Source: an uncultured Actinomycetota bacterium (GTDB lineage: Bacteria > Actinomycetota > Actinomycetes > Actinomycetales > Dermatophilaceae). Taken from it: a stretch of 64,000 bases of DNA. The stretch covers positions 628-64,627 of the forward strand of contig CAWJME010000004.1 of NCBI GenBank assembly GCA_963843895.1, given 5' to 3'. Shown piece after piece: positions 40,861-64,000 of the stretch. Below the pieces are notes generated by a model. The model saw only the letters and a program-made list of their open reading frames with translations. It did no database searches and had not been told where the DNA came from. The translations under genes and the position numbers were made by a program. Position 1 is the first letter of the stretch; each line of letters begins with the position of its first letter.

Positions 40861-40864
40861 GTGG

Positions 40865-40896
40865 GCATCCTCGCAGGCGTCGCTCTGCGAGGATGC
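40865..40896. promoter_or_regulatory. 12-bp perfect inverted repeat GCATCCTCGCAG-N8-CTGCGAGGATGC
   Basis: Read directly. Occupies most of the 40-nt gap between divergent start codons 40860 (-) and 40901 (+). Confidence 0.45.
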
Positions 40897-40900
40897 GGCC

Positions 40901-47014: not shown

Positions 47015-47155
47015 GGGGGAGGCCTCCGTCGTGGTGTGTCCCCAGCCTCCCGGGTGGCACCGCTGCACGTCGTCGTCCCACCGCAGACACCTGAGCCGTA
47101 CTGCGTCCGCAGTACGGCTGCCTGGGACGGCGCGGGCCGACGCACGGCGGCGCCC

Positions 47156-47815
47156 TCAGGGTGTGACGAGGCCGGCCTGGTAGGCCATCACCACGAGCTG
47201 GGCCCGATCTCGCGCACCCAGCTTCGCCATGGACCGGTTGACGTGGGTCTTGGCGGTCAGGGGCGACACGAACAGATCGGTCGCGATCTCGTCGTTGGTC
47301 AGCCCGCGGGCCACGAGCCTCACGACCTCGGTCTCCCGCTCGGTGAGCCCCTCCAGGGCGCCCGGACCGGCACTCGGGCCGGTGGGCACCGCGAGCATCC
47401 TCGAGATGAGGCTCCGGGTCGCCGAGGGGGAGAGCAGTGCCTCGCCGGCCGCCACGACCCGGATCGCCTCGAGCAGCGCCGTGGGCTCCACGCCCTTGCC
47501 CAGGAACCCGCTGGCGCCCGCCCGCAGCGCAGCCACGACGGCGTCGTCGGACTCGAACGTCGTCAGCACGAGCACGCGCACGTCGCGGAGGTCGGGGTCC
47601 GCGGTGATCAGCTCGGTCGCGGAGAGCCCGTCCGTTCCCGGCATCCGGATGTCCATGAGGACGACGTCGGGTCGCGTGTCCCGCGCGAGGGCCACCGCCT
47701 CGGCACCGTCGACCGCCAGAGCGACGACCTCCAGGTCTGCCGCCGAGCCGACGATCGCGGCGAACCCGGCCCGGATGAGGGCCTGGTCGTCGGCGATCAG
47801 GACACGGATGGTCAT
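47156..47815 (-). CDS. NarL/LuxR-family response regulator
   Basis: Track ORF. VLIADDQ, VVLMDIRMPG receiver motifs; C-terminal LTERETEVVRLVARGLTNDEIA HTH. Confidence 0.9.
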   Translation of the reverse strand: MTIRVLIADDQALIRAGFAAIVGSAADLEVVALAVDGAEAVALARDTRPDVVLMDIRMPGTDGLSATELITADPDLRDVRVLVLTTFESDDAVVAALRAGASGFLGKGVEPTALLEAIRVVAAGEALLSPSATRSLISRMLAVPTGPSAGPGALEGLTERETEVVRLVARGLTNDEIATDLFVSPLTAKTHVNRSMAKLGARDRAQLVVMAYQAGLVTP

Positions 47816-48995: not shown

Positions 48996-49164
48996 GGCAC
49001 GACGGTAGCGCGGCGCGGATCGGCGGCTCACCGACCACGAGTGCGCGCGTGCAGATGTGACCCGCGTCCTTGTGGGGCCGCGCGGCGAGGGAGACGCTGG
49101 AGGCAGGACGCGGGTGGCCCGCCACCGCGACCGCGCGGTGGGTGTCTCCGGAGAGGACGAACCC

Positions 49165-50052
49165 ATGAACCAGGACATGCTCGCCAAGATCCGGACCGGC
49201 ACCGGCTTCATCGCCGCCCTGGACCAGAGCGGTGGCAGCACGCCGAAGGCCTTGGAGCGCTACGGGATCGCCGGGTCGGCGTACAGCGACGAGGCCGGCA
49301 TGTTCGACCTCATCCACCAGATGCGGTCCCGTGTCATCACGAGCCGGGTCTTCACCGGGGACCGCATCCTCGCCGCGATCCTCTTCGAGCAGACCATGGA
49401 CCGGGAGGTCGAGGGCCTGGGCTCGGCCGAGTACCTCTGGACCCGCAAGCGCATCGTCCCCTTCCTCAAGGTCGACAAGGGCCTCGAGGGCGAGGCGCAC
49501 GGCGTGAAGCTGATGAAGCCCATGCCGGACCTCGACGCGCTCCTGGAGCGCGCCCGGGGCCACGGCGTGTTCGGCACCAAGATGCGCTCGGTGGTCCGTA
49601 CGGCGGACCCCGCGGGGATCGAGGGCGTCGTCGCGCAGCAGTTCGACATCGCCCGGCGCATCCTGGCCGCCGGGCTCGTGCCGATCATCGAGCCCGAGGT
49701 CGACATCCACAACCCCCGGAAGGCCGCGGCGGAGCAGCTGCTCAAGGCGACGCTCCTCACCCACCTCGACCGACTGAGCGAGGGACAGGACGTCATGCTC
49801 AAGCTGACGCTGCCCGACGTGGACGGGGACCACCGGGAGCTCCTCGACCACCCACGGGTCCTGCGCGTCGCCGCGCTCTCGGGCGGCTACTCCCGAGGTA
49901 CGGCGGTCGACCTCCTCGCACGGAACCCGGGAGTCATCGCCAGCTTCTCGCGCGCCCTCACCGAAGGCCTCACCGCCCAGATGTCCGACACGGAGTTCGA
50001 CGAGGCGCTCGACGCCTCCGTGGCGGCCATCTACGCGGCCTCCGCGACGTGA
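49165..50052 (+). CDS. fda: class I fructose-bisphosphate aldolase
   Basis: ATG 49165 is preceded by GGAGAGGA, in track ORF 49057..50052. GFIAALDQSGGSTPKAL, ILFEQTMDREVEG, VPFLKVDKGL, IIEPEV and LSGGYSR. Confidence 0.9.
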   Translation: MNQDMLAKIRTGTGFIAALDQSGGSTPKALERYGIAGSAYSDEAGMFDLIHQMRSRVITSRVFTGDRILAAILFEQTMDREVEGLGSAEYLWTRKRIVPFLKVDKGLEGEAHGVKLMKPMPDLDALLERARGHGVFGTKMRSVVRTADPAGIEGVVAQQFDIARRILAAGLVPIIEPEVDIHNPRKAAAEQLLKATLLTHLDRLSEGQDVMLKLTLPDVDGDHRELLDHPRVLRVAALSGGYSRGTAVDLLARNPGVIASFSRALTEGLTAQMSDTEFDEALDASVAAIYAASAT

Positions 50053-50069: not shown

Positions 50070-51953
50070 TCACACGACGACGCGCTCCCGCTCCGGTGCC
50101 GGCTCGACCTCGTCGGCCCACGCACCCGCCCGCGCCGCGGCGCGGCGCCGACGGACACCGACGGCCAGGGCCACGAGGGCGAGCCCGAGGAGGGCGGCGG
50201 AGAGTCCCTGCAGCAGCCCGCCGACGGGGGTGCGTGAGACCACCGTCGCCGGACGGGGGGCCGCGCCGCCCACCACCCAGGTGACCGACGACACGGCGTC
50301 GGGCAGACCGGGACGGACGACGACGACCCGCAGCGGGGTGGGTCCGGGGGTCTCGACGGTGAGCGGCACGCTCCAGCCCTCACCGGGCAGTCGCTGCCCG
50401 TCGCTCACCGTCACCGCGCCGCGGGCGTCGACCCGCTCCACCCGCACCGCGACCGGCCGCGGCGGCGCGGGACGGCGGCTGTCGAGCACGTCGACGACCG
50501 CGATGTTGACGCCGGGACGGTTCGGCTGCACCACGGTGTGCTCCGCGAGGTCGGCCGCGGTCGCGTCGACGGCGACGGACGGCGTGACGTCCCCGGCACT
50601 CGACAGCTCCGGCGCCGTCGCCGGCTGACCGCTCGACAGCAGGGCCGACATCGCCAGCGCCGCGACGAGCAGGCCGGACTCGGCAGCCACCGACCGCGGC
50701 GGACGAACCGCCGTCTCGGCCCGGGCCCAGCGGACGTGGCGCAGACCCAGGAGGGCGGCCACCGCGACCAGGGCCACCTTGAGGAGGAGGGTCCGCCCGT
50801 AGGTGGTGAGCAGGACGGCGTCGACCGAGGCCACGGCGGAGCTCGCGAGGAAGACCCCGGTCGTCGCCATGACGGCCACGGCGACGGCGGCCGGGCGGGC
50901 GAAGGACCGGATGACGGCACGGACCGCGGCGCGCGACACCTGTCCTCGGCGGGCGCCGGACGCGAGGACCACGGCCATCGCGACGCCGCCGAGCCAGGTG
51001 GTGGTCGCGAGCACGTGGAGGACGTCGGCGGCCAGCCGCACCGGCCCCACGGGGCTCACGGCGGCGTGCCCGAGGAGCGCCGTGCCGGTCCCCGCGGCGA
51101 CCGCACCGACGAGGACCAGGGGCCGTGACACCCGCCACCCCGCGCGGGCCAGGCCGAGGGCGACGGCGGCGAGGCCGACGGCACGCAGCCCCACCCGCAG
51201 GGCGTACCACCCGGTGAGCACCGTGCCGAGTGGCACGTCCGACCCGAGGGCCTGGACGAGGGGCAGGGCGACGCAGGCGAGCGTGGCGAGCACGACGACC
51301 GTGAGCACGGGACGGCGGGAGCGGGCGAGGACCGCGGTCGCGCCGGGTGACCCGGCCGCGAGCCGCACGACCAGCGCGTGACCGAGCCCGCCGGCGACGC
51401 CGAGCAGCGCGAGCCAGCGCAGGAAGGCCTGGTCGAGGGCGGCCGGCGCCTCGGTCCGTCCGGCGGGGGCGACCTGCTGTCCCACCCCGAACACGACGAC
51501 GGCCGTCGTCCGGTGCATGTCGTCGGCCGACAGGGTGTCGACGGTGAGCCGGTAGCTGCCGACGGGGAGGGTGCCGAGCACGGGGACGACGAGCGAGACC
51601 GGCGGCTCCTCCTCGACGACCGGGGCCGGGACGAGGCTCGGGGCGGTGGCCGGCTCCGGAGCGGGATCGGTGAGCTGCGCGGGTGCGTCCTCGGCCCGCG
51701 GGGCTCCGAGCGCCACCGGGGTGCCGTCGTGCCCGACGAGGACGACGTGGGTCGCGGGGAGGACGACGGCCTCGCTGAGCCGGAGGTGCAGCTCGTGCGG
51801 CGCCGAGGCGAGGACGCTGCCGTCGGCCGGGTCGCTCGAGACGAGGAAGGCGTGGGCCCGGGCCGCCCCGGCCGCGAGGACCGGGGCCGCGAGGACGAGC
51901 AGGGCCACCGCGCAGACCCGGAGGGCCCGGGCAGCGGGGGCGTGGCTCGTCAC
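50070..51953 (-). CDS. CopC-CopD fusion protein (YcnJ-like) with an extra C-terminal extracytoplasmic domain and terminal TM helix
   Basis: Track ORF. A signal peptide ends ...ARA, followed by HAFLVSSDPADGSVL (CopC N-terminal His motif). Then about 8 TM helices of CopD type, a soluble beta-rich segment and a final TM. The GTG start overlaps the upstream stop (GTGA). Confidence 0.8.
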   Translation of the reverse strand: MTSHAPAARALRVCAVALLVLAAPVLAAGAARAHAFLVSSDPADGSVLASAPHELHLRLSEAVVLPATHVVLVGHDGTPVALGAPRAEDAPAQLTDPAPEPATAPSLVPAPVVEEEPPVSLVVPVLGTLPVGSYRLTVDTLSADDMHRTTAVVVFGVGQQVAPAGRTEAPAALDQAFLRWLALLGVAGGLGHALVVRLAAGSPGATAVLARSRRPVLTVVVLATLACVALPLVQALGSDVPLGTVLTGWYALRVGLRAVGLAAVALGLARAGWRVSRPLVLVGAVAAGTGTALLGHAAVSPVGPVRLAADVLHVLATTTWLGGVAMAVVLASGARRGQVSRAAVRAVIRSFARPAAVAVAVMATTGVFLASSAVASVDAVLLTTYGRTLLLKVALVAVAALLGLRHVRWARAETAVRPPRSVAAESGLLVAALAMSALLSSGQPATAPELSSAGDVTPSVAVDATAADLAEHTVVQPNRPGVNIAVVDVLDSRRPAPPRPVAVRVERVDARGAVTVSDGQRLPGEGWSVPLTVETPGPTPLRVVVVRPGLPDAVSSVTWVVGGAAPRPATVVSRTPVGGLLQGLSAALLGLALVALAVGVRRRRAAARAGAWADEVEPAPERERVVV

Positions 51954-52507
51954 AGGACCGGGATGTGCGCCAGGGTCTGCCCCCCGTAGGACAGTGACGC
52001 GAACTCGTCCGCCTGGACCACTCCGCCGTTGCGGTAGACGAAGTAGTACGTCTGGCCCGCCGTCATCGTGTGCCCCTTCTTCATGAGCGCGACCGTGTTC
52101 GTCCGGGCGTCCCGCACCTCACTGCTCAGCACCGGGGGGTGCGTCGTGTCGGACTGGAAGGTCGTCGCGCGGGCGGGGTCGAGGCACAGGTAGTTCACCT
52201 GCACCAGGCCGCCGTCGCCGACGAGCGCGACGCGGGTGATCCGGATGCCGAGCTGGCTCTCCATGACGGCGTTGGTCGGCATCGGCGCGCCCGCGCTGGA
52301 CGGGTGCCGGGTGGCGAGGGCGACCGCGCCGGCGACGGCCAGCGCGAGGACGACCACGGCGACGACGATCCGTCGCCCGAGCGAGGGCGTCCGCCCAGGC
52401 ACCGGCCGGGCGTGCGTCGTGCCCCCGGCCCCTCCCGGCGGGAGGTCGGAGCCTCCCGCCGGAGCGGTCGATGCGCGGGTCGTCAGCGTGCTGCTCACCG
52501 GAGCCAC
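51950..52507 (-). CDS. membrane-anchored hypothetical protein (cytoplasmic tail, one TM, about 115-aa extracytoplasmic domain)
   Basis: Track ORF. GTG 52507 lies 1 nt after the upstream stop. TM helix IVVAVVVLALAVAGAVALA. Met/His patch ALMKKGHTM. No family recognised. Confidence 0.55.
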   Translation of the reverse strand: MAPVSSTLTTRASTAPAGGSDLPPGGAGGTTHARPVPGRTPSLGRRIVVAVVVLALAVAGAVALATRHPSSAGAPMPTNAVMESQLGIRITRVALVGDGGLVQVNYLCLDPARATTFQSDTTHPPVLSSEVRDARTNTVALMKKGHTMTAGQTYYFVYRNGGVVQADEFASLSYGGQTLAHIPVL

Positions 52508-52508
52508 C

Positions 52509-55500
52509 TCACCAGCGCTGGAGCTGGTCGAGGGACACGTACCCGGTGGGTCGGACGGCCGTGGACTGGTCGACCAGCCCCACCCGGATGCTCGTCGTGC
52601 CGGCGGCTGGTGTGCCGTTGCCGAGCTGCTGGACCCCGAGCAGGTTGCCGGTGGAGCCGTACACCGCCAGGGTCAGCTGCCCGGCTGTGCTGTCCATCGT
52701 CACCCGCACGGTGACGATGGCGGTGTTCCCGATGGTGATCGGGGTTCCCGTCGGGGTGGTCTGGCCCGCGAGCACCGGGGTGAGGGCCAGGCCCGCACCG
52801 CTGCCCGTCGCGACGACCGAGAACCGCGCCGTCGTGCCGGCGTAGCCCTGGTAGATCGTCACCCGCGTGCCGGTGGGTACGGCCAGGGAGTCACCACGCA
52901 GGGCGAACTGGGCGTTGGCCACCACGGTGGCCGGCGAGGCCGTCGGGCTGGTGAGGTACGCCGGGTTGGTGCCCCCGGTGGCCCGCACGTAGCCGGTGCC
53001 GACCATCCGAGGCTGCGTCGTCGACCGGGCGATGCCGTTGCCGCTCGTCTTGGCCCAGCCGGTCGGCGGGAAGGTGTTCCCGTCGAAGGTCTGGGTGTCG
53101 ACGGGCGTCGCGCTCACCGTCGCGGTGCCCGAGGCGGCCACGCTCCAGTTGCCGGCCTTGTCCTGCAGCCGCAGGTTGACCGTCGTCGAGCCGAGCAGGA
53201 GCTGGGCCCTGGGGATGGTGAACGTCGCCTGCGTCCCGGTGTAGGACACCGTGACCTTGGTGGCCCGCCCGACGCCCGGGTCGACGCTGCCGAACCACAC
53301 CTCCCCGCCGGTGATGTCGCTGGTCTGGGTGCCGCTGAGGGCCGCCGTGACCGTCACGGTGGCCGGGGACGACCCGGCGGTCGGCGTGACCGTGAGCGAG
53401 GAGATCACCGGCTTGACGGTGTCGACGACGAACGTGGCCAGGGTCGTCGCGCCCCAGTTGCCGGCCGCGTCCTGGCCGTAGACGTAGAGCTGGTGATCAC
53501 CCTGGGTCGAGGCCCAGGTCTTGACCTGGGAGAGGGGGACGAGTCCGTAGACGTTCTCGGTGCTCGAGTCGAAGGCCCCGTCGGTCGCCTGCAGCGTCAT
53601 GCCCTTGTGGGTGGCGGTCGGTGCGGCCGGGTCGTCGAAGAAGGCGACGGCCTGGACGATCCGGCTCGAGACGGTGCTGTTGTTCTGGCTGTCCTGGACG
53701 ATCGCGGTGACCTTGGCGAAGCCGGGGTTCGACGGGTCGCTGATGGCGCCGTTGAGGGCACTCGGGCTCATCGCCGAGGCGATGGTCACGGGGCCGACGA
53801 GGTCGACCGTGAACGGCACGTCGAGCAGGGGACCCCACAGGCCCTGGGTGTCCTTGCTGTGGACGAACACGTGGTGGTTGCCCTCGGCGAGCCCGGCGGC
53901 CGGCGGGATGGTCGCCGTCTCGGACGTGACGGTGCGTCCGGCCACGAAGGCGACCGGGGTGCCGGTGCCGTTCGTCGGGTCGGTGACGAAGGTCCCGTCC
54001 GGTTTGGTCGCCGGGTCGAGGAAGTACTCCGCACCGGTGATCTGCCCGCCGAACCCGCTGTCGTTGCCGGTGGCGGTGAGCTTCATCGACGTCGAGGCGT
54101 TGACCGGGTTGGGGGTGATGGCGCCGCTCGTGGTCAGCGGTCCCCGCTTCGGCACGTTGACGGCCACCGAGCCGAGCGTGCCCCACTTGTTGGCGTGGTC
54201 GCGTGCGCGGACGTAGATGACGTGGCGGCCGGCGGCGAAGCTCGGGTCGGCGAGCACCGAGGCCGGGATGGTCGCCGTGGCTCCGGTGACCGTCACGGCG
54301 CCGAAGCCGCCCGTCATCGCGATGCCGTTGCCGGGACCGATCGTCGTCGCGTCGTCGATGACGACCTCTGCGGCGTCGACGGTGCTGCCGCCGGTCGTGG
54401 CGTCGCTGAGGTCGGCCGTCACCGTCATCGGCGTCGTCGCGTCGGACGGGTTCGGATCCGCCGTCACGTGCGTCACGGCCGGACCGACGGTGTCGCCGAG
54501 GACCGGGGGCGCGTTGGTGTCGAGGAAGGTGAGCATGCCGCCGAACGCCGTCTGCGTCGGGTCGGCCGTGGTCATCGCGTTGTTGTCCAGGTGCGTCCCG
54601 GACTCGACGAGCGCGAGCTTGGCGTCGGCGCCGGTCGGGACCGTCACGATGGTGTCGGCCGTCTCACCGGGGGTGAGCGGCTCGACGACCTCGCCCACGG
54701 GGTAGGTGAGTGGGTGGCCGTCTCGGGCGACGGCGACCTGGTCCGAGCCGAGGACGCTCATCGCGTGCGGCAGCGCGCCGAGGTCGGCGTAGCGCAGCAG
54801 CAGGCGGTGGCCCTGGTCGGTGGGGATGACGTCGGTCTCGGGGAACGCCTTGCCGTTGACCAGCCGGTACCGGGGGTTGAAGCCCCGCATGTCGAAGCCC
54901 GTGGGGTCGGCGTTGAGGGCGGGGTCGATCTCGCCGAGGGCCACGACCGACTCGTCCACGAACGCCGATGCCGGGGTGCCGTAGGCGGTCGTCCCGTCCG
55001 CCGGACGCACGATGAGCACGCCGGCGAGGCCCATGGCGACCTGCCGAGCGCCGTCGGCGGTGTGCCCGGCCTCGTAGACGAAGGTGCCGGGGCGGGAGGC
55101 GTGCAGCGTGAAGGTACCGGTCTGTCCGGCGTCGATGCCGGTCGTTGCCGTGGAGGCGTCGAAGCCATGCGTGAGGTCGGCGGCGGGGATGCCGGGAACG
55201 GCGAGCGACAGGGGTGCCGCGAGCTCGTTGTGCACGATGAGGTCCACCGTCGAGCCCTGGTCGACCACGAGGAGGGGGCCGGGCAGCGTCGGGTTGCCGG
55301 TCGGCGCACCGGACCAGCCCCAGATGGGGATCTTCCGGGTGACGACGGTCACCGTCCCGGCGCGTGCGTAGAGGTCACAGGTGGCGGTCGTCCCGGTGGT
55401 CGAGCACCCCTGGGCGCCGAGGTGTCCGCTGCCCGCAGCCGCGAGGGCCGGCGCGGCGGCGCCCGCGGCGGCCGTCGTCGTGCGGGCGAGGTGCCCGGTG

Positions 55501-55610
55501 AGGGTCGCCGCGGCGGCGGGTGAGGTCGAGGCCAGCCCGGCGGCGAGCAGCACCGCCGTCGCCAGTGCCGCCACTCGGGAGGCACCCATGGCTCGTGTTC
55601 GCGTGGTCAT
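52509..55610 (-). CDS. secreted multicopper-oxidase-like protein lacking copper ligands, followed by tandem Ig-like modules and a C-terminal beta-rich domain (1,033 aa)
   Basis: ATG 55610 in track ORF 52509..55895. Signal peptide. The two cupredoxin-like domains are clearly paralogous to the 55631..56974 product (LPGPLLVVDQGSTVDLIVHNEL, GLAGVLIVRPA, PRYRLVNGKAF, FGGMLTF). Confidence 0.75.
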   Translation of the reverse strand: MTTRTRAMGASRVAALATAVLLAAGLASTSPAAAATLTGHLARTTTAAAGAAAPALAAAGSGHLGAQGCSTTGTTATCDLYARAGTVTVVTRKIPIWGWSGAPTGNPTLPGPLLVVDQGSTVDLIVHNELAAPLSLAVPGIPAADLTHGFDASTATTGIDAGQTGTFTLHASRPGTFVYEAGHTADGARQVAMGLAGVLIVRPADGTTAYGTPASAFVDESVVALGEIDPALNADPTGFDMRGFNPRYRLVNGKAFPETDVIPTDQGHRLLLRYADLGALPHAMSVLGSDQVAVARDGHPLTYPVGEVVEPLTPGETADTIVTVPTGADAKLALVESGTHLDNNAMTTADPTQTAFGGMLTFLDTNAPPVLGDTVGPAVTHVTADPNPSDATTPMTVTADLSDATTGGSTVDAAEVVIDDATTIGPGNGIAMTGGFGAVTVTGATATIPASVLADPSFAAGRHVIYVRARDHANKWGTLGSVAVNVPKRGPLTTSGAITPNPVNASTSMKLTATGNDSGFGGQITGAEYFLDPATKPDGTFVTDPTNGTGTPVAFVAGRTVTSETATIPPAAGLAEGNHHVFVHSKDTQGLWGPLLDVPFTVDLVGPVTIASAMSPSALNGAISDPSNPGFAKVTAIVQDSQNNSTVSSRIVQAVAFFDDPAAPTATHKGMTLQATDGAFDSSTENVYGLVPLSQVKTWASTQGDHQLYVYGQDAAGNWGATTLATFVVDTVKPVISSLTVTPTAGSSPATVTVTAALSGTQTSDITGGEVWFGSVDPGVGRATKVTVSYTGTQATFTIPRAQLLLGSTTVNLRLQDKAGNWSVAASGTATVSATPVDTQTFDGNTFPPTGWAKTSGNGIARSTTQPRMVGTGYVRATGGTNPAYLTSPTASPATVVANAQFALRGDSLAVPTGTRVTIYQGYAGTTARFSVVATGSGAGLALTPVLAGQTTPTGTPITIGNTAIVTVRVTMDSTAGQLTLAVYGSTGNLLGVQQLGNGTPAAGTTSIRVGLVDQSTAVRPTGYVSLDQLQRW

Positions 55611-55630
55611 CGTCAGTCGTCCCCTCGGGC

Positions 55631-56974
55631 TCACGTGCAGCCACCCGGAGGGTCGATGCGGTACACCGTCATCATCCCGCCGAAGGTTGCGCCGTAGTTG
55701 GTGGCCTGCTGCAGTGCGTGGCTGTGGGCGATGTGGTAGTACTCGCCGCACTGGTTGTTGTCGGTGATGTAGGTGGGCACGTTGCCCTTGACCCCGAGGT
55801 AGGGGCTCTCGCTGAACCAGGTGTCGGTGCCGACGAGGAGCTGGTCGGTGATGGCCGGCAGCCGGGTCGGGATCTGGTTCGTGGTGGGGTTCCACTGGTC
55901 CACGTCGGTCCAGACCATGGTCGCGTCGAGGCTCTGGCCGGGCTGCACGTCGAGGTCGAACTTGTTGTAGGACAGGTCCTCACCGTTCCCACCGCGCGTC
56001 GGGTGGCCGTCGATGTTGACGATGCGCTCGTCGCTGCCGTGCGGGTGGAACGGGTAGTTCTCCGTCCCGGCGTTGAGGTAGCGGATCAGCGCGGGCCGAG
56101 GGGTGTCCGCCGGGGACGGCTGGATGTGCACCAGCGCCCCGTAGGGCTGGGCCGGCAGCCACGACGCGTGGTTGGGAGCCAGCGTGTCCGGCATGCTCCG
56201 GCCGTTCATCATGAAGTACCGCGGCTTGTACGAGGCCCAGTCGGGGGTCTCGCCGCGCTCCACCGCGAGGTGGATGTCGGGGTCGATCTCGGAGAGCACG
56301 AAGAGGTACTCGTGGTTCGTGTCGAAGGTCGTCCCGCTGTCGGTCACCTGGTCGGCGTGACCCGCCGGGCGGACCACGAGCGCCCCGAACAGACCCATCT
56401 GGGTCTGCTTGTTGACGTCGGTGCCGGAGGAGTAGAGGTAGGTGCCGGGCGCGCCGGCCGTGAAGGTGTAGGTCATCGACCCGTTCGTCGCCTCGGCGGG
56501 CTGGACGAGCGAGGTCAGCGTGCCGGTGGAGGAGAACTGGGGCTGCGCGGGGTTGCCCGCGGCCTTCACCCCCGTCTGGCCGTGGAAGACGATGGACACC
56601 GGCTCGGTCAGCGTGTTGTGCAGGATCACCGTCACCGCCTCGCCGGAGTTCACGCACAGTGTCGGGCCGGGCAGCTGGAAGCCGTGTCCCGCCCCCTCGT
56701 TCGCGAAGCCCCACGAATAGATCGAGTTGCCGTCCGGGGTCGAGATGTCCCCCGTCCTGGTGCCGAGCGTGAACGTGTTGTTCGTCGCGGTGTCGCAGGC
56801 GATGCCCTCGGCGGGGTAGTCGCCGGCGTGGGCCGCGGTCTGCGCGGTCACGGCGACCCCGAGCGCGAGCACCGCGGCGGCGCCGCCGGCGAGGAGCCGC
56901 CGGCCGGTCCGGGTGCGGGGGGCCCGCGGGAGCCGCCGGGACTCCCCGGGCGGGGTGGCAGAGTGCCTTCTCAT
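55631..56974 (-). CDS. Tat-signal two-domain multicopper oxidase family protein; His ligands only in the C-terminal domain (HPH and HSH), no type-1 Cys
   Basis: Track ORF, 447 aa. RRLLAGGAAA twin-arginine motif. FHPHG (His310/312) and HIAHSH (His414/417/419). The N-terminal domain has VSIVFHGQTG in place of HWHG. Confidence 0.8.
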   Translation of the reverse strand: MRRHSATPPGESRRLPRAPRTRTGRRLLAGGAAAVLALGVAVTAQTAAHAGDYPAEGIACDTATNNTFTLGTRTGDISTPDGNSIYSWGFANEGAGHGFQLPGPTLCVNSGEAVTVILHNTLTEPVSIVFHGQTGVKAAGNPAQPQFSSTGTLTSLVQPAEATNGSMTYTFTAGAPGTYLYSSGTDVNKQTQMGLFGALVVRPAGHADQVTDSGTTFDTNHEYLFVLSEIDPDIHLAVERGETPDWASYKPRYFMMNGRSMPDTLAPNHASWLPAQPYGALVHIQPSPADTPRPALIRYLNAGTENYPFHPHGSDERIVNIDGHPTRGGNGEDLSYNKFDLDVQPGQSLDATMVWTDVDQWNPTTNQIPTRLPAITDQLLVGTDTWFSESPYLGVKGNVPTYITDNNQCGEYYHIAHSHALQQATNYGATFGGMMTVYRIDPPGGCT

Positions 56975-56990
56975 CGTCGTGTCTCCCCAC

Positions 56991-58307
56991 TCACAGGTTC
57001 GGTTGGGACTGGGCAGGGAGGGTGCCCGGCGGGACGACGCTGATCTTCGTCATCATCCCGCCGTAGCCGGTGCCTCCGCCGTTGTTGAGGAAGCTGTACC
57101 GGCGGTCGTAGAACAGGTACTCGCCGACCGCCGGAGCGGTGAAGATGACGTCCCGGCTCTCACCCGGGCCGATGTCCACCGTGTTCGTCGTGAGGTAGTT
57201 CGACACCGCTCCGTTGCGCAGCAGGCTCGCGTCCTCGGCGACGACGGTGAGGTCGATGTCGTCGCAGGTGAGCGAGTGGTCCTGGAAGCCCAGGCTCGCC
57301 AGGCGCACGAGCACCTTCTCGCCGGGCATGCACGTGATGTGCGACGAGTTCGGCTGGTACTGCAGGCGGCCGCTCACCGTGTCGAGGTCGGGACGGTACT
57401 GCAGACCGCCGTCGGCGCGGGTCACCGAGCTCGCACCGTTCGGGGCGTAGGTGTCGGGGTAGGCGCGGCCGTTCATCAGCCAGAACGAGGCGTCGAAGTC
57501 GGTCCAGTCACTGACCTGGATGTGTGCGTCGCGGTAGTGGGCCGCCGACCACAGCTCGGTGACGATGATGCCGAACTCGCGGTCGTAGCGGGTCGACCCG
57601 TCGCCGTCGTTGTAGGCGTACGTCGTCCCGACGGGGTCGGTGCCGACCGGGTGGGCGTTCTGCCTCGGTCGCACCCACACCATTCCCGACATGCCCATCT
57701 GCACGTGCTCGACGTCCTCGAAGTGGCAGTGGTACATGTACGTCCCGGCGTCGTGCGGCTTGTAGAAGTAGTCGAACCGGCGGCCCACGGGCACCGAGAG
57801 CGACAGCTCGGGGACGCCGTCGAAGAGGGGGATGGCGTTCTGGAAGCCGTGCCAGTGCATGGTGTGGCCGTCGAAGAGGTCGGGCCGCTGCGAGAGGCCG
57901 AGGTTGTACAGGCTCAGCGTGATCTCGTCCTCCTCGTCGAAGACGAGGATCGGGGCCGAGATCTGGGCCTTGCCGCGCTGGGCGGCCAGGTCCGCGTCGC
58001 TGAGGCCGGAGACGTCCCGGAACCCGAACACGTAGGTGTTGAAACCGGGCGGGGCGAGGGGGTCGGGGAAGAAGGGCGGGTCGGCCGGCGCCGTGTCCGG
58101 CATCGAGACCCAGCCGTCCGTGCCGGCGAGGGCGAGGGACTTCGTCGGCCCGGTCCCGACCTTCGCCGCCTGCACGACGGCACCGCGAGCGGTCTGCGGG
58201 GCCACGACCCGGGCGGCCGCGACGAGGCCTCCGGCTCCGAGGGCACCCAGCAGGACGCGACGACGGTCCACGGTGAATGTGCTCATGGTGTGCTCCTGCT
58301 GCGTCAT
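56991..58307 (-). CDS. Tat-signal two-domain multicopper oxidase family protein; type-1 site and half of the trinuclear-cluster ligands in the N-terminal domain only
   Basis: ATG 58307 overlaps the upstream stop (ATGA). An alternative ATG at 58286 is preceded by CAGGAG. DRRRVLLGALGAGG Tat motif. GHTMHWHG and YHCHFEDVEHVQMGM. Lies in track ORF 56991..59096. Confidence 0.8.
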   Translation of the reverse strand: MTQQEHTMSTFTVDRRRVLLGALGAGGLVAAARVVAPQTARGAVVQAAKVGTGPTKSLALAGTDGWVSMPDTAPADPPFFPDPLAPPGFNTYVFGFRDVSGLSDADLAAQRGKAQISAPILVFDEEDEITLSLYNLGLSQRPDLFDGHTMHWHGFQNAIPLFDGVPELSLSVPVGRRFDYFYKPHDAGTYMYHCHFEDVEHVQMGMSGMVWVRPRQNAHPVGTDPVGTTYAYNDGDGSTRYDREFGIIVTELWSAAHYRDAHIQVSDWTDFDASFWLMNGRAYPDTYAPNGASSVTRADGGLQYRPDLDTVSGRLQYQPNSSHITCMPGEKVLVRLASLGFQDHSLTCDDIDLTVVAEDASLLRNGAVSNYLTTNTVDIGPGESRDVIFTAPAVGEYLFYDRRYSFLNNGGGTGYGGMMTKISVVPPGTLPAQSQPNL

Positions 58308-61300
58308 GGGGTGGCCTGGGCGGCGCCGGCGTCGTACCGGGTTCCGGTGGGTCGGGGGGCTCCGTGCAGGTCCGTCGGGGGAGCGGTGACGAACACGGGG
58401 CTGGTCCCGTAGGCGACCGCCATCCGCTGTGTCCCGATGCCGATGGCCGGGGACCCCGGCGCGAGGTCGACGTTCCCCAGGAGGCTGTACGGCAGCACGG
58501 GGGTGACGATCGCGGCTTGTCGGAACGCGGGGAACTGCCGCGAGGCGAGGACGTTCACGGCGATCTGGAAGTCCTGGCGGACGCCCACCGCGTTGACCGA
58601 GTCGGGCCCCTGGACGTTGCCCGAGCCGACCGTGTCCGTCGCGTTCTGGTACCACGTGCTGTTCATCTGCAGCTGCAGCCCGTGGGGGTTGTCGGCGACT
58701 CCGACGTCCCACCGGTTGGCGTCGGCATCGGTGATGCCGCTCTCGAGGCCGCCGTAGTAGGTACCGGCGTAGTTGTCCGAGAAGACGTTGTCGAACATCG
58801 TCGGGCTGGCCACGGCGGTGCCGTCGTGCAGCATCGTCGCGAAGCCGGGCTGGCTCGCGAGCCGGGCGATGAGCGGGTCGCTCAGGGTCCCGGTCGAGAG
58901 GCCGGCCGGTGCCGGGAGGCCGTTGCTCGTCAGGGCTGTCGCCGTCGTGATGTTGCGGACGACGGTGTTGTCGACGATGTTCACGAAGGCCGCGTCGTCG
59001 AGCGCGATGCCGCCACCCTCGTGGGCCGACACGTTGTTCGCGATGTCGTTGTTCGTGATGCCGATCGTGTCGGTGACGACCTGGTTCGCGGGGCACGTGG
59101 TGACACCGCGTCGCGTGGTGCAGTTCGGGGTGGCGACGTGCGAGCCGGACGTCTGGAGCAGCCGGATCCCGCCGCCGTCGTCGTTCGCGAGGTTGGCCTG
59201 GATGACGTTGGCGTCGATGGAGACCGGACCGCTGCCGGCGCTCAGCGCGTCGGGGGTGGCGGGCAGCTCACCGGCGACCATGATGGCGCCGCCCTCGTCG
59301 TAGGACTGGTTGAACCAGATCCGGTTGTGGTCGATGGAGTTCTTCGCACCGAACGTCGCGTTCGTGTTCTGGTAGCCGAAGGACGTGATCGCGCCGCCGT
59401 ACTCGGAGGAGTGGTTGCCGCAGATGGCGTTGTGGTCGACCGAATACCCGTCGGACCCGGTGAAGAGCCCGATGCCGCCCGCGAGGTTGGTGCCACCGTT
59501 GTCGCGGATCTGGTCGTGCGAGATCACCGCGCCGTAGTTCTGGTTGTTCCCGACGTACGGCGTCCCGATCCGGATGGCGCCGCCGAACGAGCCGCTGTTG
59601 CCGTCGAAGACGTCGTTGGTCAGGTGCAGGCCCTGGACCTGCTGGTGGGCGTAGACTCCGCCGCCCTGGGTGACGAGCGAGCCTCCGGCGCCGACCGGGG
59701 TCGAGACGGCCCCGGTGACCGCGTTGGCGGCCGTGGCGATGTTGGCCTGCGAGCCGTTGCGGATGCGCAGGCCGTCGAGCGCGACCGGCCAGACCTGGTT
59801 GGGCGACCCCGTCGCCGGCGGCTGGTGCGTCCCGGCCAGCGGCGCGAGGACGGTGACGTCCGCCGCGTCGGGGACCTCGGCCAGTCCTCGGTAGGCCTGG
59901 CGGTTCACCGCCGCGAGCCAGTTCGTGCCGCTCGGGAGGTCGAGGTCGAACCCGGTGCCGTCGATGATCGACCCGGCGACGAAGGTGCCGGCGTCGTCGA
60001 AGCCACCGGGCCCCACGCCCTGGATGCGCACCTGGTTGTGGACGACGATGTTCTCGTTCCAGTCACCCTGCGGGTTGCTCGCGGTCTGGGTGTTCGGCCA
60101 GACGACCACCGCGTCGTACTGGCGGTCGGCGGTGGGCCGGGCTGCGTCGAGTGCCGCCTGCACCGTCTTGTAGGCCTTCGTCGGACCGACCTCGTAGAGC
60201 CTGGGGTTGTTCTGCGTCGCCCCGGTGCCGGTGGTGTTGAGCGCGAGCAGCGACAGCGTGTTGTACGCCGCGGTCCCCGACGAGCTCTTCAGGGTCAGCT
60301 GGAGCGCGCCGGCGAGCTTCTGGTTGGCACCGTACGTCGCGGGCACCGTGAAGACGATCTTCCGGGGGCTCCACGACGTGACCGTCGCGGGGACCTCGGG
60401 CATGGAGGTGACGAGGGGGTCCTTGAGGGTGAGCGTGCCCTTCGTCGTCCCGAAGCCGTACCCGGTGAGGGTCACCGACCGGTTGGCGCCGGTGGTGCCG
60501 AGCACGTAGGGCGTGCTCACCGACAGCAGCTGGGGCGTGGTGTCCGGGAGGTTGCACACGGTGTTGTCGGCCACCGCGCCGTCCGGGGTGAGGACCGTCG
60601 CCGCCGCCTGGGTCGGCGCCTGGTCGGTCACCGTGTAGAGGCCCGGCCAGCCCTGGAAGTTGGCCGCGATGGTCCGGAACCTCGAGTTGTAGTCGGCGTT
60701 CAGCGCGCCCGGCGCACCGGGGTCGTTGCCCACCGTTCGGTACATGTTCGGGCACGGACCCGCGGGGACCGGACAGTTGTAGGTGTCGGTCGAGGGCATG
60801 AGCGCCTCGTACATCCCGTTGAAGTCGGTGTGCGCGGTGTAGTCGAGCCGCCCGGCCCAGTCGTAGAAGCCGACGGGGACGAAGGGCAGGCCCTGGGCCT
60901 CGCCGTAGCCGATCGAGCGGGTGTCGAGGGTGAGCCCGAGGTCGTTGATCGTCAGGCCCCAGAAGTGGGTCGGGACCGGGACCTCGGTGAAGAGGTTGAA
61001 GTTCGGCGCCACGGTCTGGCCGGAGCGCACCGTCACGAGCTTGTCGGCGCACGACGGCATGTCGTAGCCCTCGAACGGTGAGCCACCGGCGGCGTTGAAG
61101 TCCGGGTTGTAGGTACCGGGGACGGGGTCCCTCGGGTCGTCGAGCGGCAGGCTGCGCACGTGGACGGTGTGCAGCGGGCCGACGCAGGAGGAGATGATGC
61201 CGGCCTGCTGCGACGGCGGCTGCGAGGGGGGAGTGGGGGTGGCGGACGGCGGGTCGGCCGGGTTGTCGGCAGCCGCCTGCGTGGACGGCGGGAAGTTCTC

Positions 61301-63760
61301 CTGCGGCAGGTAGGTGTCACCGGTGAAGACGTTGACGTCCTCCTCGGAGGTCACCTTGTACATCGGGCGGTCGCCGACCGGGGTCCTGGGGATGTCGACG
61401 CTCACGATGTAGTCGCCGGCGGCCATCCCGCTGAACCCGTAGTTGCCGTTGACCGACTGCGCGCCCGAGGTGTCGTTGACGCCGGCCTGGAAGCCCATCA
61501 TCGGCGACTCGACGCACGCCTGGTTGGCGTCCACCCCGAACTCCGGGAGGGCCTGCTGGATGCTGGAGTCGAGGACCGACCCGTCCCACTGCCGGCCGGT
61601 GCACCCGCGGGGGGCGCCCCAGGTCTCGGAGGTGTAGGCGTCGGTGACCTCGGGGCCCTTGACGAACGCACCGCGTTGCGGGTCGGGGTTGGTCGCGCCG
61701 TTCACCGTCAGCGGCACGATCTCCTTGCCCTGCCGGCACTCGTTGGCGACGTCGACGGCGTAGGTGTCCGAGGTCTTGTCCGTGACCGCGCACGGCGTCG
61801 AGGTGAAGAGGTGGACGGTCACGCCGGGGATGCCGGGCTGGTAGGCCTCGCTCGCCGCGTCGGCGGCGTCGAGCTCGTTGCGGGTCGTGTCGTAGCTGAT
61901 CGTCGCCGCGATACCGCCGTTCTCGGTCTGGTCGTACGGCCGCACGCCCCAGTCGACGGTGCCGTGGAGCCCGATGATCGGCAGCACGTTGAGGTCGACC
62001 ATCTGGCCGAGCTGCGTGGTCGGCGTGGGGTCGTTGTCGCCCTGCCACGTGACGCCGGTCGTCGCGTAGCGGGTGTTGAAGGCCTCGAGGACCAGGTACT
62101 TGGCCATCGGGTAGCCCTCACGGATGTCGAACTCGCCCGCGTCGTTCGTCGTCACGGTGTTCGTCGCCTGGTCCATGAGTGTGTTGTCGCGCTCGCGCAG
62201 GGTGAGGGCGAAGCTCGGCACGCCCTGCTCGCCCGGGTCCCGCACGCCGTTGCCGTTGTCGTCGATGAAGACGTGGCCCGAGAAGTGCGAGAACCAGCCG
62301 ACGAGCATCTGCTGCCCGACGTCGGTGTAGCCGCCCGAGCCGCTGTGCGCCGCCGCGTCGACCTCCGCGTTGAAGCTCATGATGATGTAGTCCTGGTCGT
62401 CGTCCCAGAGGGTGACCTGGTAGCTGCCGTCGGCGACGCCGTCGATGGAGAACGTGCCGTCGGAGCGGGCCTGCGCGAGGTACACCTCCTGGTCGCCGTT
62501 GTTCAGGTCGGACAGTGCGACCCAGACGTTCTTGAGGCGGGCGCCGATCTTCGTCCCGGCGACGCCCTCGGGCCCGACGACCCCGTTCTGGCCGCCGATG
62601 TAGGGCAGGCCCTGGACGACGACGCCCTTGATGCCGCCCGGCCGGGTCGTGTCCGTCGCCGACGGGGCGAGGGCCATCGACTTCGTGAAGCCGAACTGGG
62701 TGGCCGGCACGGGCTCCTGCCCGCGCAGCTGCTCGGTGTCGAGGCCGGTGTCGCCCTCCTGGACCCAGATGTCGTGGTCGTGCCCGCCCTCGAGGGTGGT
62801 CGTCTGCACCCAGCGCCGGCCGCCGGTGAGGGCGGGGGCGGCGACCGTGGCGGCATAGCGGTTCGGGCCGAGGTTCGGGATCCTGATGACGCCGTGGGAG
62901 TCGCTGTCGCAGCCCGGAGCCTTGGTCGTGTCGACGACCGGCTTGTTGTTCGCGTCGAAGACGATCGGGCTGCCGGGGTCCGCGGGTGCGGTGTGGACGT
63001 AGTTCGTGCACAGCGCGTTCCCGTAGTAGTCGACGCTCACCGCGCCGAAGACGTCGGTGAGGTGGGCGCGGAAGTGGGACATGTCCACGCCGTTCTCGGC
63101 GTCGACCTCGTAGGTGCCGTCGACCGGCGCGTAGTCGTCGTAGACCTGGATCTGGATGGTCGCCAGCGGTAGGGGGGTCGGGTTCAGCCCGACGCTCAGG
63201 GTCTGGGTGGTGCCGTCGACGGTGAAGTGCGCGCCGTCGATCTTGTAGCCGGAGGCCTTGACCGAGATGAGGTACTTCCCACCGGGGAGGTCGAGGCTCT
63301 TGCCGGCCGCGAAGTCGCTCTGGTCGCCCTCCGCGATGATCGGGGCGAACCCGGACGTCGCCCGGGTGCTCGGCCACGGGCAGGTGTCGGCGAACGCGGG
63401 GTCGGTGGAGTGCGCCCCGGCGGCCGTCGAGGGGAGGCAGCTCGACAGGAGCGGGTCCTTGGCGGTGCCCGGGTTCCCGGTGTCGTCCGCGTTGATGATC
63501 CACTCGTAGCTCGTCACGGGGTCCCCGGCGTTCGGCTTCACCGCCTTCTTGGCCGGGTTGACGTCGCGCGCGCTGACGACGCCGAGCCGGATCGCCCCAG
63601 CGGCGTACGTCGGGGCCGTCCAGGCCGCCGGAGCGGCGGCCTGCACCGCTGCCCCCAGTGCGGATGCCCCGGCCGTACCCAGCACGGTGATCGGGACCAC
63701 GGCGACCGCCAGGACTGCTGCGAGCCGGCCGAGGGGAAGGATTCGTCGAGCCCTGCGCAT
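58304..63760 (-). CDS. giant secreted protein (1,818 aa): N-terminal Cna-B/SdrD-B/carboxypeptidase-regulatory-like beta-sandwich modules, Pro-rich linker, C-terminal right-handed parallel beta-helix region
   Basis: ATG 63760 is preceded by AGAGGGAG, in track ORF 58304..63856. Signal peptide MRRARRILPLGRLAAVLAVAVVPITVLG. FIDDNGNGVRDPGEQGV SdrD-B-like motif. Repeated GG(A/G)I(x)(x) PbH1-like turns in the last ~640 aa. Confidence 0.75.
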   Translation of the reverse strand: MRRARRILPLGRLAAVLAVAVVPITVLGTAGASALGAAVQAAAPAAWTAPTYAAGAIRLGVVSARDVNPAKKAVKPNAGDPVTSYEWIINADDTGNPGTAKDPLLSSCLPSTAAGAHSTDPAFADTCPWPSTRATSGFAPIIAEGDQSDFAAGKSLDLPGGKYLISVKASGYKIDGAHFTVDGTTQTLSVGLNPTPLPLATIQIQVYDDYAPVDGTYEVDAENGVDMSHFRAHLTDVFGAVSVDYYGNALCTNYVHTAPADPGSPIVFDANNKPVVDTTKAPGCDSDSHGVIRIPNLGPNRYAATVAAPALTGGRRWVQTTTLEGGHDHDIWVQEGDTGLDTEQLRGQEPVPATQFGFTKSMALAPSATDTTRPGGIKGVVVQGLPYIGGQNGVVGPEGVAGTKIGARLKNVWVALSDLNNGDQEVYLAQARSDGTFSIDGVADGSYQVTLWDDDQDYIIMSFNAEVDAAAHSGSGGYTDVGQQMLVGWFSHFSGHVFIDDNGNGVRDPGEQGVPSFALTLRERDNTLMDQATNTVTTNDAGEFDIREGYPMAKYLVLEAFNTRYATTGVTWQGDNDPTPTTQLGQMVDLNVLPIIGLHGTVDWGVRPYDQTENGGIAATISYDTTRNELDAADAASEAYQPGIPGVTVHLFTSTPCAVTDKTSDTYAVDVANECRQGKEIVPLTVNGATNPDPQRGAFVKGPEVTDAYTSETWGAPRGCTGRQWDGSVLDSSIQQALPEFGVDANQACVESPMMGFQAGVNDTSGAQSVNGNYGFSGMAAGDYIVSVDIPRTPVGDRPMYKVTSEEDVNVFTGDTYLPQENFPPSTQAAADNPADPPSATPTPPSQPPSQQAGIISSCVGPLHTVHVRSLPLDDPRDPVPGTYNPDFNAAGGSPFEGYDMPSCADKLVTVRSGQTVAPNFNLFTEVPVPTHFWGLTINDLGLTLDTRSIGYGEAQGLPFVPVGFYDWAGRLDYTAHTDFNGMYEALMPSTDTYNCPVPAGPCPNMYRTVGNDPGAPGALNADYNSRFRTIAANFQGWPGLYTVTDQAPTQAAATVLTPDGAVADNTVCNLPDTTPQLLSVSTPYVLGTTGANRSVTLTGYGFGTTKGTLTLKDPLVTSMPEVPATVTSWSPRKIVFTVPATYGANQKLAGALQLTLKSSSGTAAYNTLSLLALNTTGTGATQNNPRLYEVGPTKAYKTVQAALDAARPTADRQYDAVVVWPNTQTASNPQGDWNENIVVHNQVRIQGVGPGGFDDAGTFVAGSIIDGTGFDLDLPSGTNWLAAVNRQAYRGLAEVPDAADVTVLAPLAGTHQPPATGSPNQVWPVALDGLRIRNGSQANIATAANAVTGAVSTPVGAGGSLVTQGGGVYAHQQVQGLHLTNDVFDGNSGSFGGAIRIGTPYVGNNQNYGAVISHDQIRDNGGTNLAGGIGLFTGSDGYSVDHNAICGNHSSEYGGAITSFGYQNTNATFGAKNSIDHNRIWFNQSYDEGGAIMVAGELPATPDALSAGSGPVSIDANVIQANLANDDGGGIRLLQTSGSHVATPNCTTRRGVTTCPANQVVTDTIGITNNDIANNVSAHEGGGIALDDAAFVNIVDNTVVRNITTATALTSNGLPAPAGLSTGTLSDPLIARLASQPGFATMLHDGTAVASPTMFDNVFSDNYAGTYYGGLESGITDADANRWDVGVADNPHGLQLQMNSTWYQNATDTVGSGNVQGPDSVNAVGVRQDFQIAVNVLASRQFPAFRQAAIVTPVLPYSLLGNVDLAPGSPAIGIGTQRMAVAYGTSPVFVTAPPTDLHGAPRPTGTRYDAGAAQATP

Positions 63761-63870
63761 CTTGGATCTCCCTCTGCGACGACGGCATCGGCCACGTGAA
63801 TGGCCTCCACGGACCCTGCTCCGGGGAGTCGGCCGTCGAGGAGAAAGGTGGGCCATGGGTCAAGCCCCGG

Positions 63871-63930
63871 CAAGCAAAAGGCAAAAACCCACAGCAGCGC
63901 GCAACGCTGACGACAGCGGGCTGTGGGTTT
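63871..63930 (-). terminator. intrinsic terminator for a minus-strand gene lying beyond the right window edge
   Basis: Stem AAACCCACAGC / GCTGTGGGTTT (63885-63895 / 63920-63930). On the minus strand it is followed by TTTTTGCCTTTTGCTT. Confidence 0.6.
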
Positions 63931-64000
63931 GCTGTCAGGTTCCGGTGAGGTTCGGCCCCCGCGCCGTTCGGAGGCGCGCCGCCGACGGGTCTCGGGCCCC

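Follow-up and report, generated by a model that had tools for sequence, protein, structure and literature searches.

Complementary halves of a multicopper oxidase cluster on two adjacent actinobacterial genes, with a ligand-free third paralogue: a candidate hetero-oligomeric enzyme

Can the trinuclear copper cluster of a multicopper oxidase be built between the products of different genes? The question is raised by a 64,000-nucleotide (nt) stretch of DNA (the window) from an uncultured actinomycetotal bacterium of the Dermatophilaceae (contig CAWJME010000004.1), where a minus-strand series of six genes, here called BIG, A, B, C, D and E, contains three neighbours encoding cupredoxin-fold proteins. 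A and B each carry a part of the copper ligands, and C carries none. We propose that ancient duplication of a two-cupredoxin-domain protein gave rise to A, B and C, and that the three are subunits of a single hetero-oligomeric multicopper oxidase, with one type-1 copper and one trinuclear cluster at the interface between A domain 1 and B domain 2. We put the probability of this full three-chain picture at roughly 70%, and consider it very likely that A and B jointly form the copper cluster.

Subunit A consists of two cupredoxin domains and is the sole chain of the three with type-1 copper ligands; it also holds the domain-1 half of the trinuclear-cluster ligands. A sequence search against solved structures ranks first the type-C two-domain oxidases 3g5w (Nitrosomonas europaea blue copper oxidase) and 2zwn (metagenomic mgLAC), with NirK also among the best matches, and the Pfam model Cu-oxidase_3 is matched at 48.8 bits (cut-off 21), alongside Cu-oxidase_2 and Cu-oxidase. 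The alignments to 3g5w and 2zwn span both domains. HTMHWHG of A falls on HTIHWHG of both structures, and HCHFEDVEHVQMGM on their HCHVNVNEHV..GM, with the type-1 ligands in domain 1 as in the type-C arrangement; in domain 2, TCD and YDR of A align with HSH and HDH of 2zwn. The 14-residue block HCHFEDVEHVQMGM is identical in all orthologues whose open reading frame (ORF) is intact across it (47/50 extracted sequences), and the sole invariant Cys of A is the type-1 ligand. A fold search with the predicted model of A returned multicopper oxidases, two-domain oxidases and NirK, at E-values down to 1e-17 and with 9cck among the top matches, so that the model, as a prediction, confirms the fold class. 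At the former His-ligand positions of domain 2, Tyr400-Asp401-Arg402 is invariant; together with a conserved block in C domain 1 (described below), these may be salt-bridge or packing residues that fill an empty cluster cavity. The acidic FEDVE loop beside the type-1 His was considered as a ceruloplasmin-like metal-substrate site and dropped, because 3g5w and 2zwn likewise have Glu before that His.

Subunit B also has two cupredoxin domains, lacks a type-1 site and holds the domain-2 half of the trinuclear-cluster ligands. It matches Cu-oxidase_3 at 47.8 bits (cut-off 21); against solved structures it finds ascorbate oxidase first (domain 1 only), then 7rab, 2zwn and 3g5w, with a weak match to the factor-V-like chain 4bxs. 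FHPHG of B aligns with MHSHG of 2zwn, and in a profile–profile alignment of the orthologue sets HSH of B lies opposite YDR of A. The domain-1 positions are degenerate, and in most orthologues Pro replaces the His of VSIVFHG. The four ligand His are invariant in 16 divergent representatives at 34–53% identity. His414, just ahead of the second ligand pair, is invariant in the closer clade (50/50) and is replaced by Ile, Phe, Met or Gln in divergent lineages, and is thus not a core ligand. Between His417 and His419 the orthologues split about evenly between Ser and Asn. The initial annotation of this DNA had taken the Ser as an altered type-1 Cys, a reading we discard: HxH, with Ser as in B, is the normal state for a domain without a type-1 site in type-C two-domain oxidases. 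Domain 2 further contains a conserved insertion of ~50 residues, and four Cys of the chain (60, 107, 409 and 446) are invariant, from which we infer disulfides. The B family comprises 208 clusters at 50% identity (E below 1e-30), and at least 596 confirmed stretches in metagenome contigs encode B relatives.

Summed by sequence, A and B supply exactly the four HxH pairs and the type-1 His/Cys/His of a multicopper oxidase, a set that is absent from A, B and C singly. The initial annotation had made this case for the two adjacent genes, and its core idea, though not every part of it, withstood comparative re-analysis. Translation of both ORFs and re-derivation of the positions reproduced its motifs and nucleotide coordinates exactly; its motif assignment is borne out by the fall of the A and B motifs on the ligand motifs of 3g5w and 2zwn; and the same alignments, with the profile–profile alignment of A and B, leave A domain 2 and B domain 1 without ligands, as it had stated. 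Neither protein is complete alone, and the half-sets are complementary (eight His and one type-1 site) and strictly co-inherited. Its view of a two-gene system holds for the complementarity of A and B but not for the number of subunits, since a third paralogue always accompanies the two and, in one lineage, forms one polypeptide with B.

That third paralogue, C, begins with a two-cupredoxin-domain unit that bears none of the twelve ligands, reading LSLAVPG, YEAGHTADGARQVAMGL, HAMSVLG and a gap at the four motif positions. It matches Cu-oxidase_3 at 39.8 bits (cut-off 21), its best Protein Data Bank (PDB) matches are 2zwn and 3g5w across both domains, and NirK is also close. Profile comparison with hhalign gives probabilities of 99.9% for A and B, 99.5% for A and C and 100% for B and C, with both domains covered and C aligned over ~340 columns. 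Within C domain 1 the block YEAGH..G.RQVAMGL is conserved in genome loci; its His183 varies in divergent metagenome lineages. The remainder of C is a long extension whose Ig-like domains might hold the enzyme in place, perhaps on the 1850-residue BIG protein.

The partition is not peculiar to the window. A genome scan, with one genome per species, yielded 51 loci from many actinobacterial families, and a metagenome scan seeded with divergent B sequences added 80, many of them just 45–52% identical to window B, making 131 loci surveyed. Among the genome loci, B follows A in 49/49 informative cases and C follows B in 48/48; gene order and strand are constant across the genome loci (51/51) and the 80 metagenome loci, and neither A without B nor B without C occurs among the 131. 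The eight ligand positions of A are identical in 59–62 of 59–62 metagenome loci and in 48–49 of 49 genome loci, and the four ligand His of B in 80/80 and in 49–50 of 50, respectively; the rare exceptions sit in loci with ORFs that appear frameshifted or truncated. All twelve ligand residues are kept at 42–45% identity. Conversely, a His at the cluster-equivalent positions of A domain 2, B domain 1 or C was never found in the 131 loci. Co-occurrence and ligand conservation, which the initial annotation had named as a check on its proposal, therefore hold throughout the survey, and ligand conservation this close to universal means that the partition between A and B is not due to chance. A and B are also the most conserved proteins of the locus (median identity 67% and 68%, against 54.5% for BIG, 47% for C, 47% for D and 38.5% for E). 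The A-B-C locus is common and widespread in soil bacteria, being present in many soil actinobacterial genera, and its proteins currently go by generic names: multicopper oxidase (domain-containing), FtsP/CotA-like oxidase, copper oxidase or hypothetical protein. Its cultured carriers include Kribbella, Nocardioides pocheonensis, Pengzhenrongella phosphoraccumulans and Phycicoccus duodecadis.

How might such subunits fit together? Two-domain multicopper oxidases are trimers in which the cluster is coordinated by residues of two protomers, and those of type C carry the type-1 site in the N-terminal domain (PMC13151041). By analogy with these trimers and those of nitrite reductase, the most likely form of the A·B·C enzyme would be a 1:1:1, six-domain ring with a pseudo-threefold axis. 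In this ring, A domain 1 would provide His151, His153, His193 and His195 together with the type-1 site (His148, Cys194, His201 and Met206), and B domain 2 would provide His310, His312, His417 and His419, completing the eight cluster His. If three units form a ring with A domain 1 facing B domain 2, then A domain 2 must face C domain 1 and C domain 2 must face B domain 1; both of these closing interfaces would be free of copper, and C would be a structural third subunit. We postulate that electrons pass from the substrate to the type-1 copper of A and then, over the Cys194–His193/195 bridge, reach the cluster between A and B, which would reduce O2 to water. The particle would carry 4 Cu per heterotrimer, versus 12 in a homotrimer. 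Any statement on the substrate would be of low confidence.

Rearranged loci bear on which parts of the three proteins belong together. The proteins P0244 (884 aa) and P0246 (1156 aa) consist of a B unit, a linker and then a ligand-free C-type unit, and are thus B~C fusions. They come from different contigs and samples, are 72% identical in the B part and 55% in the C part, and have a small linker domain in common and no signal peptide before the C part. Both contigs read BIG, A, B~C, D, CopCD, and their A gene keeps HTVHWHG and HCHFED with a second domain devoid of ligands. In the lineage of locus L055, B bears a long C-terminal extension and C is a bare two-domain protein of 315 aa. The two-domain trio is constant while the accessory domains move, as expected for subunits of one particle. 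Three other long fusion candidates, P0261, P0269 and P0326, were rejected as frameshift read-throughs, with out-of-frame Arg/Pro-rich stretches followed by a new signal peptide; such chimeric gene calls could be taken for genuine fusions or give a false impression of ligand loss in orthologues. Apparent frameshifts were also seen in contigs L005, L014, L025, L028, L046, L048 and L051 of metagenome-assembled genomes. A separate metagenomic protein, P0368 (L056:578-2815, 745 aa), has two tandem two-domain oxidase units and a C-terminal cupredoxin. Its unit 1 has all ligands, and its unit 2 has lost the domain-1 set (HALALPG, YLYASPDD) and kept HLH and HDH of domain 2; judged by these motifs, it is a further and independent example of a multi-unit oxidase with part of its ligands gone.

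Several observations weigh against the three-chain picture. First, the B~C fusion is found in two contigs only and in none of the 131 scanned loci. Second, invariant columns make up 8% of C, versus 24% and 31% for A and B. Third, in most species A and B leave the cytoplasm by separate routes, a complication for assembly. Fourth, the monomer models, built from alignments of 32–33 orthologues, are moderate for A (predicted local distance difference test score, pLDDT, 61; predicted template modelling score, pTM, 0.63) and poor for B (pLDDT 49). Lastly, covariation was calculated as mutual information with average product correction over 72 paired A/B/C sets with strong clade structure. Among the top 50 inter-protein pairs, 29 fall in A domain 1 and B domain 2, against 5.2 expected, and the segments concerned flank the ligand motifs (A 156–167; B 414 and 426–432). 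The enrichment is gone once per-domain propensities are taken into account (82 observed versus 79.5 expected), and clade structure also explains it. Within the closer clade there is no preference for the predicted contact between A domain 2 and C domain 1, and within-clade results are mixed. Covariation thus lends weak support to an A/B interface, and the stoichiometry may be other than 1:1:1.

The alternative that survives best accepts the A/B copper interface and places C outside the ring, as a separate surface scaffold or adhesin of the same fold, with A and B in an A2B, AB2 or higher alternating oligomer. Such a role would suit the conservation of C, far below that of A and B, its extension of approximately 660 residues, made up of Ig-like and other domains such as surface proteins typically have, and a covariation analysis with no consistent A–C signal. 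However, in the solved two-domain relatives (two-domain oxidases and NirK) three such units make up a ring, C keeps both cupredoxin domains with that 100% hhalign probability to B, and C is present in every informative locus. C is also fused to B in one lineage and a bare two-domain unit in another, as expected if the two-domain unit, rather than the extension, is essential. We regard an enzyme without C in its ring as unlikely.

The interface site could instead be another kind of copper centre, such as a NirK-like type-2 or binuclear site, making the complex a reductase or some other enzyme. NirK is a trimer with inter-subunit copper, all three proteins have it among their nearest solved relatives, and its model TIGR02376 gives weak matches. 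The ligands tell against this: HxxHxH and HCH facing HxH and HxH is the four-motif, eight-His signature of a multicopper oxidase, while NirK has H..H and HC facing a single His, and the TIGR02376 matches reach 23–38 bits against a cut-off of 296. A centre other than the trinuclear cluster is accordingly a quite improbable explanation.

Still less probable is that A, B and C form separate homo-oligomers. A would then be a blue-copper electron carrier whose second site is reduced and non-canonical, B would bind non-blue copper or another metal, and C would be a copper-free structural protein of the FtsP/SufI kind. Copper-free or partly degenerate members of the superfamily do exist (for example FtsP/SufI and coagulation factors V and VIII, with weak matches here), and the export signals of A and B differ in most species. 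In a homotrimer, though, each half-set would face Thr/Asp and Tyr/Arg (A) or Val/Pro and Ser/Gly (B); four His alone make no known copper centre of the cupredoxin oxidase fold; and the eight His are invariant over about 55% sequence divergence in genes that are never apart. The chance is equally slim that this is an ordinary copper-resistance locus of the copA-copCD-copRS kind with three redundant oxidase paralogues: the operon does end in a CopC-CopD fusion, related loci have a divergent OmpR-type two-component system upstream, and the whole is reminiscent of Pseudomonas copABCD-copRS, yet redundancy is excluded by the incomplete ligand set of each paralogue, TIGR01480 (CopA) reaches 26–34 bits where 479 are required, no heavy-metal family is matched above cut-off by the two-component system, and the conserved 1850-residue secreted protein, always present, is not known from cop operons. 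A role of the A·B·C oxidase in copper homeostasis is possible, given the resemblance to copA-copCD-copRS; no model above its cut-off indicates such a role.

For the heteromeric oxidase, the export signals raise the matter of assembly. A twin-arginine translocation (Tat) motif with its RR pair is found in 44/45 orthologues of A (SRRxFL). For B, RR is present in just 30/48 orthologues, often in a Sec-like context, window B reading GRRLLAGG (RR followed by a hydrophobic stretch), and for C, which has a Sec-type signal, in 9/41. A conserved Tat signal thus looks confined to A, and B and C look Sec-type in most orthologues. The initial annotation had assigned twin-arginine signals to both A and B and suggested export of pre-assembled, copper-loaded proteins. 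The assignment stands for A; for B it is weakened, as the RR of window B is not conserved in orthologues, and pre-assembly finds no support from B and C of Sec type and a B with four invariant Cys. To judge from these signals, A is probably folded in the cytoplasm and exported folded by Tat, and B and C probably fold outside after export by Sec; with the routes so divided, the shared cluster would have to be completed outside the cytoplasm. In CutO, a Gram-negative oxidase, maturation depends on a small factor of its own and on the export of copper to the periplasm (PMC8456105). D and the CopC-CopD protein E would be likely copper-supply or assembly helpers here, and are candidates for CutO-like roles.

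The six genes lie in series with almost no spacing (Table 1), in a region of 70–78% G+C. BIG and A overlap by ATGA (BIG stop/A start) and D and E by GTGA (D stop/E start); the spacers are 16 nt between A and B, 20 nt between B and C and 1 nt between C and D. Junctions this tight point to a single transcription unit, BIG-A-B-C-D-E, with translational coupling. A, B and C are each a separate ORF with its own start codon, an upstream purine-rich (Shine-Dalgarno-like) stretch and a signal peptide. The closest relatives of A are from uncultured Actinomycetota (96%) and Phycicoccus duodecadis (86%).

Table 1. Coordinates of the operon genes, their motifs and domains, and neighbouring genes in the window
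Feature	Coordinates (nt)	Strand	Remarks
BIG	58304..63856	-	1850 aa, operon gene 1
BIG best-conserved stretch	about 60557-61159	-	residues 900-1100
A	56991..58307	-	438 aa
A Tat signal motif DRRRVLLG	58245..58268	-	SRRxFL in orthologues
A domain 1 HTMHWHG	57846..57866	-	residues 148-154; His148 type-1, His151/His153 cluster
A domain 1 HCHFEDVEHVQMGM	57690..57731	-	residues 193-206; His193/His195 cluster; Cys194, His201, Met206 type-1
A domain 2 dead positions	57102..57278	-	HSLTCD 57261-57278, YDR (Tyr400-Asp401-Arg402) 57102-57110; no ligands
B	55631..56974	-	447 aa
B domain 1 degenerate positions	56417..56599	-	VSIVFHG, YLYSSGTD
B domain 2 FHPHG	56036..56050	-	residues 309-313; His310/His312 cluster
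B domain 2 HIAHSH	55718..55735	-	residues 414-419; His417/His419 cluster
C	52509..55610	-	1033 aa
C two-cupredoxin-domain unit	54504-55406	-	residues about 69-369; none of twelve ligands
C domain 1 conserved block	55026-55076	-	residues 179-195
C extension	52512-54503	-	residues 370-1033; Ig-like repeats and C-terminal domain of no recognised type
D	51950..52507	-	185 aa
E	50070..51953	-	627 aa
PPK2 polyphosphate kinase	40808..41890	+	neighbour
AidB-like acyl-CoA dehydrogenase	41915..43567	-	neighbour
BrkB-family membrane protein	43591..44739	+	neighbour
ABC ATPase	46055..47068	-	neighbour
LuxR-type response regulator	47156..47815	-	neighbour
Class-I aldolase-like gene (weak)	49009..50052	+	neighbour, convergent with E

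The first gene of the operon encodes a secreted protein with Ig-like, SdrD-B and CarboxypepD_reg beta-sandwich domains (weak Pfam and NCBIfam matches), and a C-terminal region of beta-helix-like repeats with a choice-of-anchor-Q tail. BIG has no PDB sequence match, no annotated relative and no CxxCH (heme) motif. It lies upstream of A wherever the contig reaches, in 48/51 genome loci (at the median identity given above) and also in metagenome loci. Its best-conserved stretch, at 87–88% mean column identity, is matched by no Pfam family. D is anchored in the membrane at its N-terminus and contains a conserved domain of ~110 aa, with no Pfam or NCBIfam match and no meaningful PDB match; found in 43/51 genome loci (the others mostly end earlier) and also in divergent loci, it is a candidate assembly or copper-delivery factor. 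E is a CopC-CopD fusion (YcnJ-like) membrane protein, with Pfam matches to CopC (40.9 bits, cut-off 23.3) and CopD (46.5, cut-off 32.1) and NCBIfam CopC/CopD similarity under the equivalog cut-offs. It is found in 40/51 genome loci, the others again mostly ending earlier. If the signal peptide is cut after ..ARA, a site judged by eye, the CopC domain of E would start with His34. In most related loci (about 25/28 full-length genome loci; L001:2175-4335, minus strand), a response regulator of the OmpR type and a histidine kinase whose N-terminus is embedded in the membrane are encoded divergently from BIG, in a region that for the window lies beyond position 64000. This two-component system probably regulates the operon; neither protein matches a specific family above cut-off, the heavy-metal CopRS/CusRS type included, and a pair so generic gives no clue to the inducing signal.

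Outside the operon, the neighbouring genes at 40787-50052 appear unrelated to it. The plus-strand GC skew is steadily positive (+0.08 to +0.13) at 52001-64000, the exact span of the minus-strand operon, and near zero across most of the window elsewhere.

If our reading of A, B and C is right, it would provide a natural active site that exists only between two different paralogous chains. It would also add a new and testable evolutionary route, duplication with complementary ligand loss ahead of fusion, and one type-1 site and one cluster per particle would ease spectroscopy and electron-transfer kinetics compared with a twelve-copper trimer. It raises an assembly question, with one subunit travelling by Tat, two by Sec and the cluster finished outside the cell. 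Annotation pipelines and laccase-mining efforts will go astray if they take A or B for an oxidase complete in itself. In its widest form, to which we give somewhat better than an even chance, the proposal is of a large, so far unrecognised family of obligate heterotrimeric multicopper oxidases in soil Actinomycetota and related uncultured lineages. Triplication and complementary ligand loss would have produced a ceruloplasmin-like three-chain enzyme, a stage, still living today, between homotrimeric two-domain oxidases and six-domain oxidases of one chain; the B~C fusion would mark one more stage along this path. At the redox core of a larger extracellular machine that also contains the 1850-residue beta-helix protein, this oxidase would act on a substrate new to multicopper oxidases.

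Against the known systems, several family assignments were tried and set aside. With the NirK equivalog TIGR02376 (cut-off 296.3 bits), A reaches 30.7, B 22.9 and C 38.0 bits, and the ligands follow the eight-His oxidase pattern. CopA/PcoA, at the TIGR01480 scores already quoted, and CueO (NF008205, 17–27 bits versus 525) fare no better, and C as a three-domain, copper-free protein of the FtsP/SufI type (NF008135, 16.7 bits versus a cut-off of 581) has ligand loss as its sole common trait. A single-polypeptide six-domain oxidase is ruled out by the three separate ORFs, the sole fusion being B~C in two contigs. To our knowledge, and in what we found, every characterised two-domain multicopper oxidase is a homotrimer, and the literature searched held no description of a heteromeric multicopper oxidase with a split cluster; the only 'heterotrimer' it turned up is the proteolytic ααα' form of Nmar_1354, discussed below.

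The closest relatives are the type-C oxidases 3g5w and 2zwn, which are alike in having two cupredoxin domains, an N-terminal type-1 site and the HCH-x5-H spacing. In them, as predicted here, the cluster is formed where domain 1 of a chain meets domain 2 of its neighbour (PMC13151041). The initial annotation knew of no characterised oxidase with a cluster built between two different polypeptides; two-domain oxidase homotrimers already build theirs between two chains (PMC13151041), and what remains new is that the chains are different. Type-C enzymes are homotrimers with both half-sets on every chain, and so have three clusters and three type-1 sites; in A, B and C the half-sets are on separate gene products and the third has none, leaving at most one cluster and one type-1 site per three subunits. 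No chain of the three holds both half-sets in any of the 131 loci. The ααα' trimer of Nitrosopumilus maritimus Nmar_1354 (9cck) is likewise a two-domain oxidase with non-identical chains, but its asymmetry arises because one copy of its only gene product loses an extra cupredoxin domain to proteolysis, and all three interfaces hold a full cluster (PMC11761707). Nmar_1354 is thus one gene with three live interfaces, whereas A, B and C are three genes with one predicted live interface.

Other multi-subunit or multi-domain systems resemble the proposed A·B·C enzyme in organisation. Bacillus Mnx (MnxG with MnxE/MnxF) is a multi-subunit multicopper oxidase complex from one operon; unlike A and B, MnxG alone has all the oxidase ligands, and its accessory subunits are small and unrelated to cupredoxins. 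Activated factor VIII (A1/A2/A3-C1-C2), together with factor V, offers a heterotrimer of two-cupredoxin-domain units, one of which has extra C-terminal binding domains, like C. Its chains, however, arise by proteolysis of one precursor, it has no trinuclear cluster or oxidase activity, and it is eukaryotic. In ceruloplasmin and hephaestin, six cupredoxin domains are arranged round a pseudo-threefold axis with a single trinuclear cluster at one domain interface, the other two equivalent interfaces being dead, which is the same plan of six domains with one live interface out of three. Ceruloplasmin differs in being a single polypeptide with type-1 sites in three domains, its cluster lying between domains 1 and 6 and the linked type-1 site in the C-terminal domain; in A, B and C the six domains are spread over three chains (two in the B~C lineage), and the one type-1 site is in an N-terminal domain. 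Models of oxidase evolution lead from a two-domain homotrimer to fused three- and six-domain enzymes with a single cluster. Set beside these systems, the fold and chemistry of A, B and C are those of two-domain multicopper oxidases and are known, and the proposed quaternary logic of three chains with a single live interface is new.

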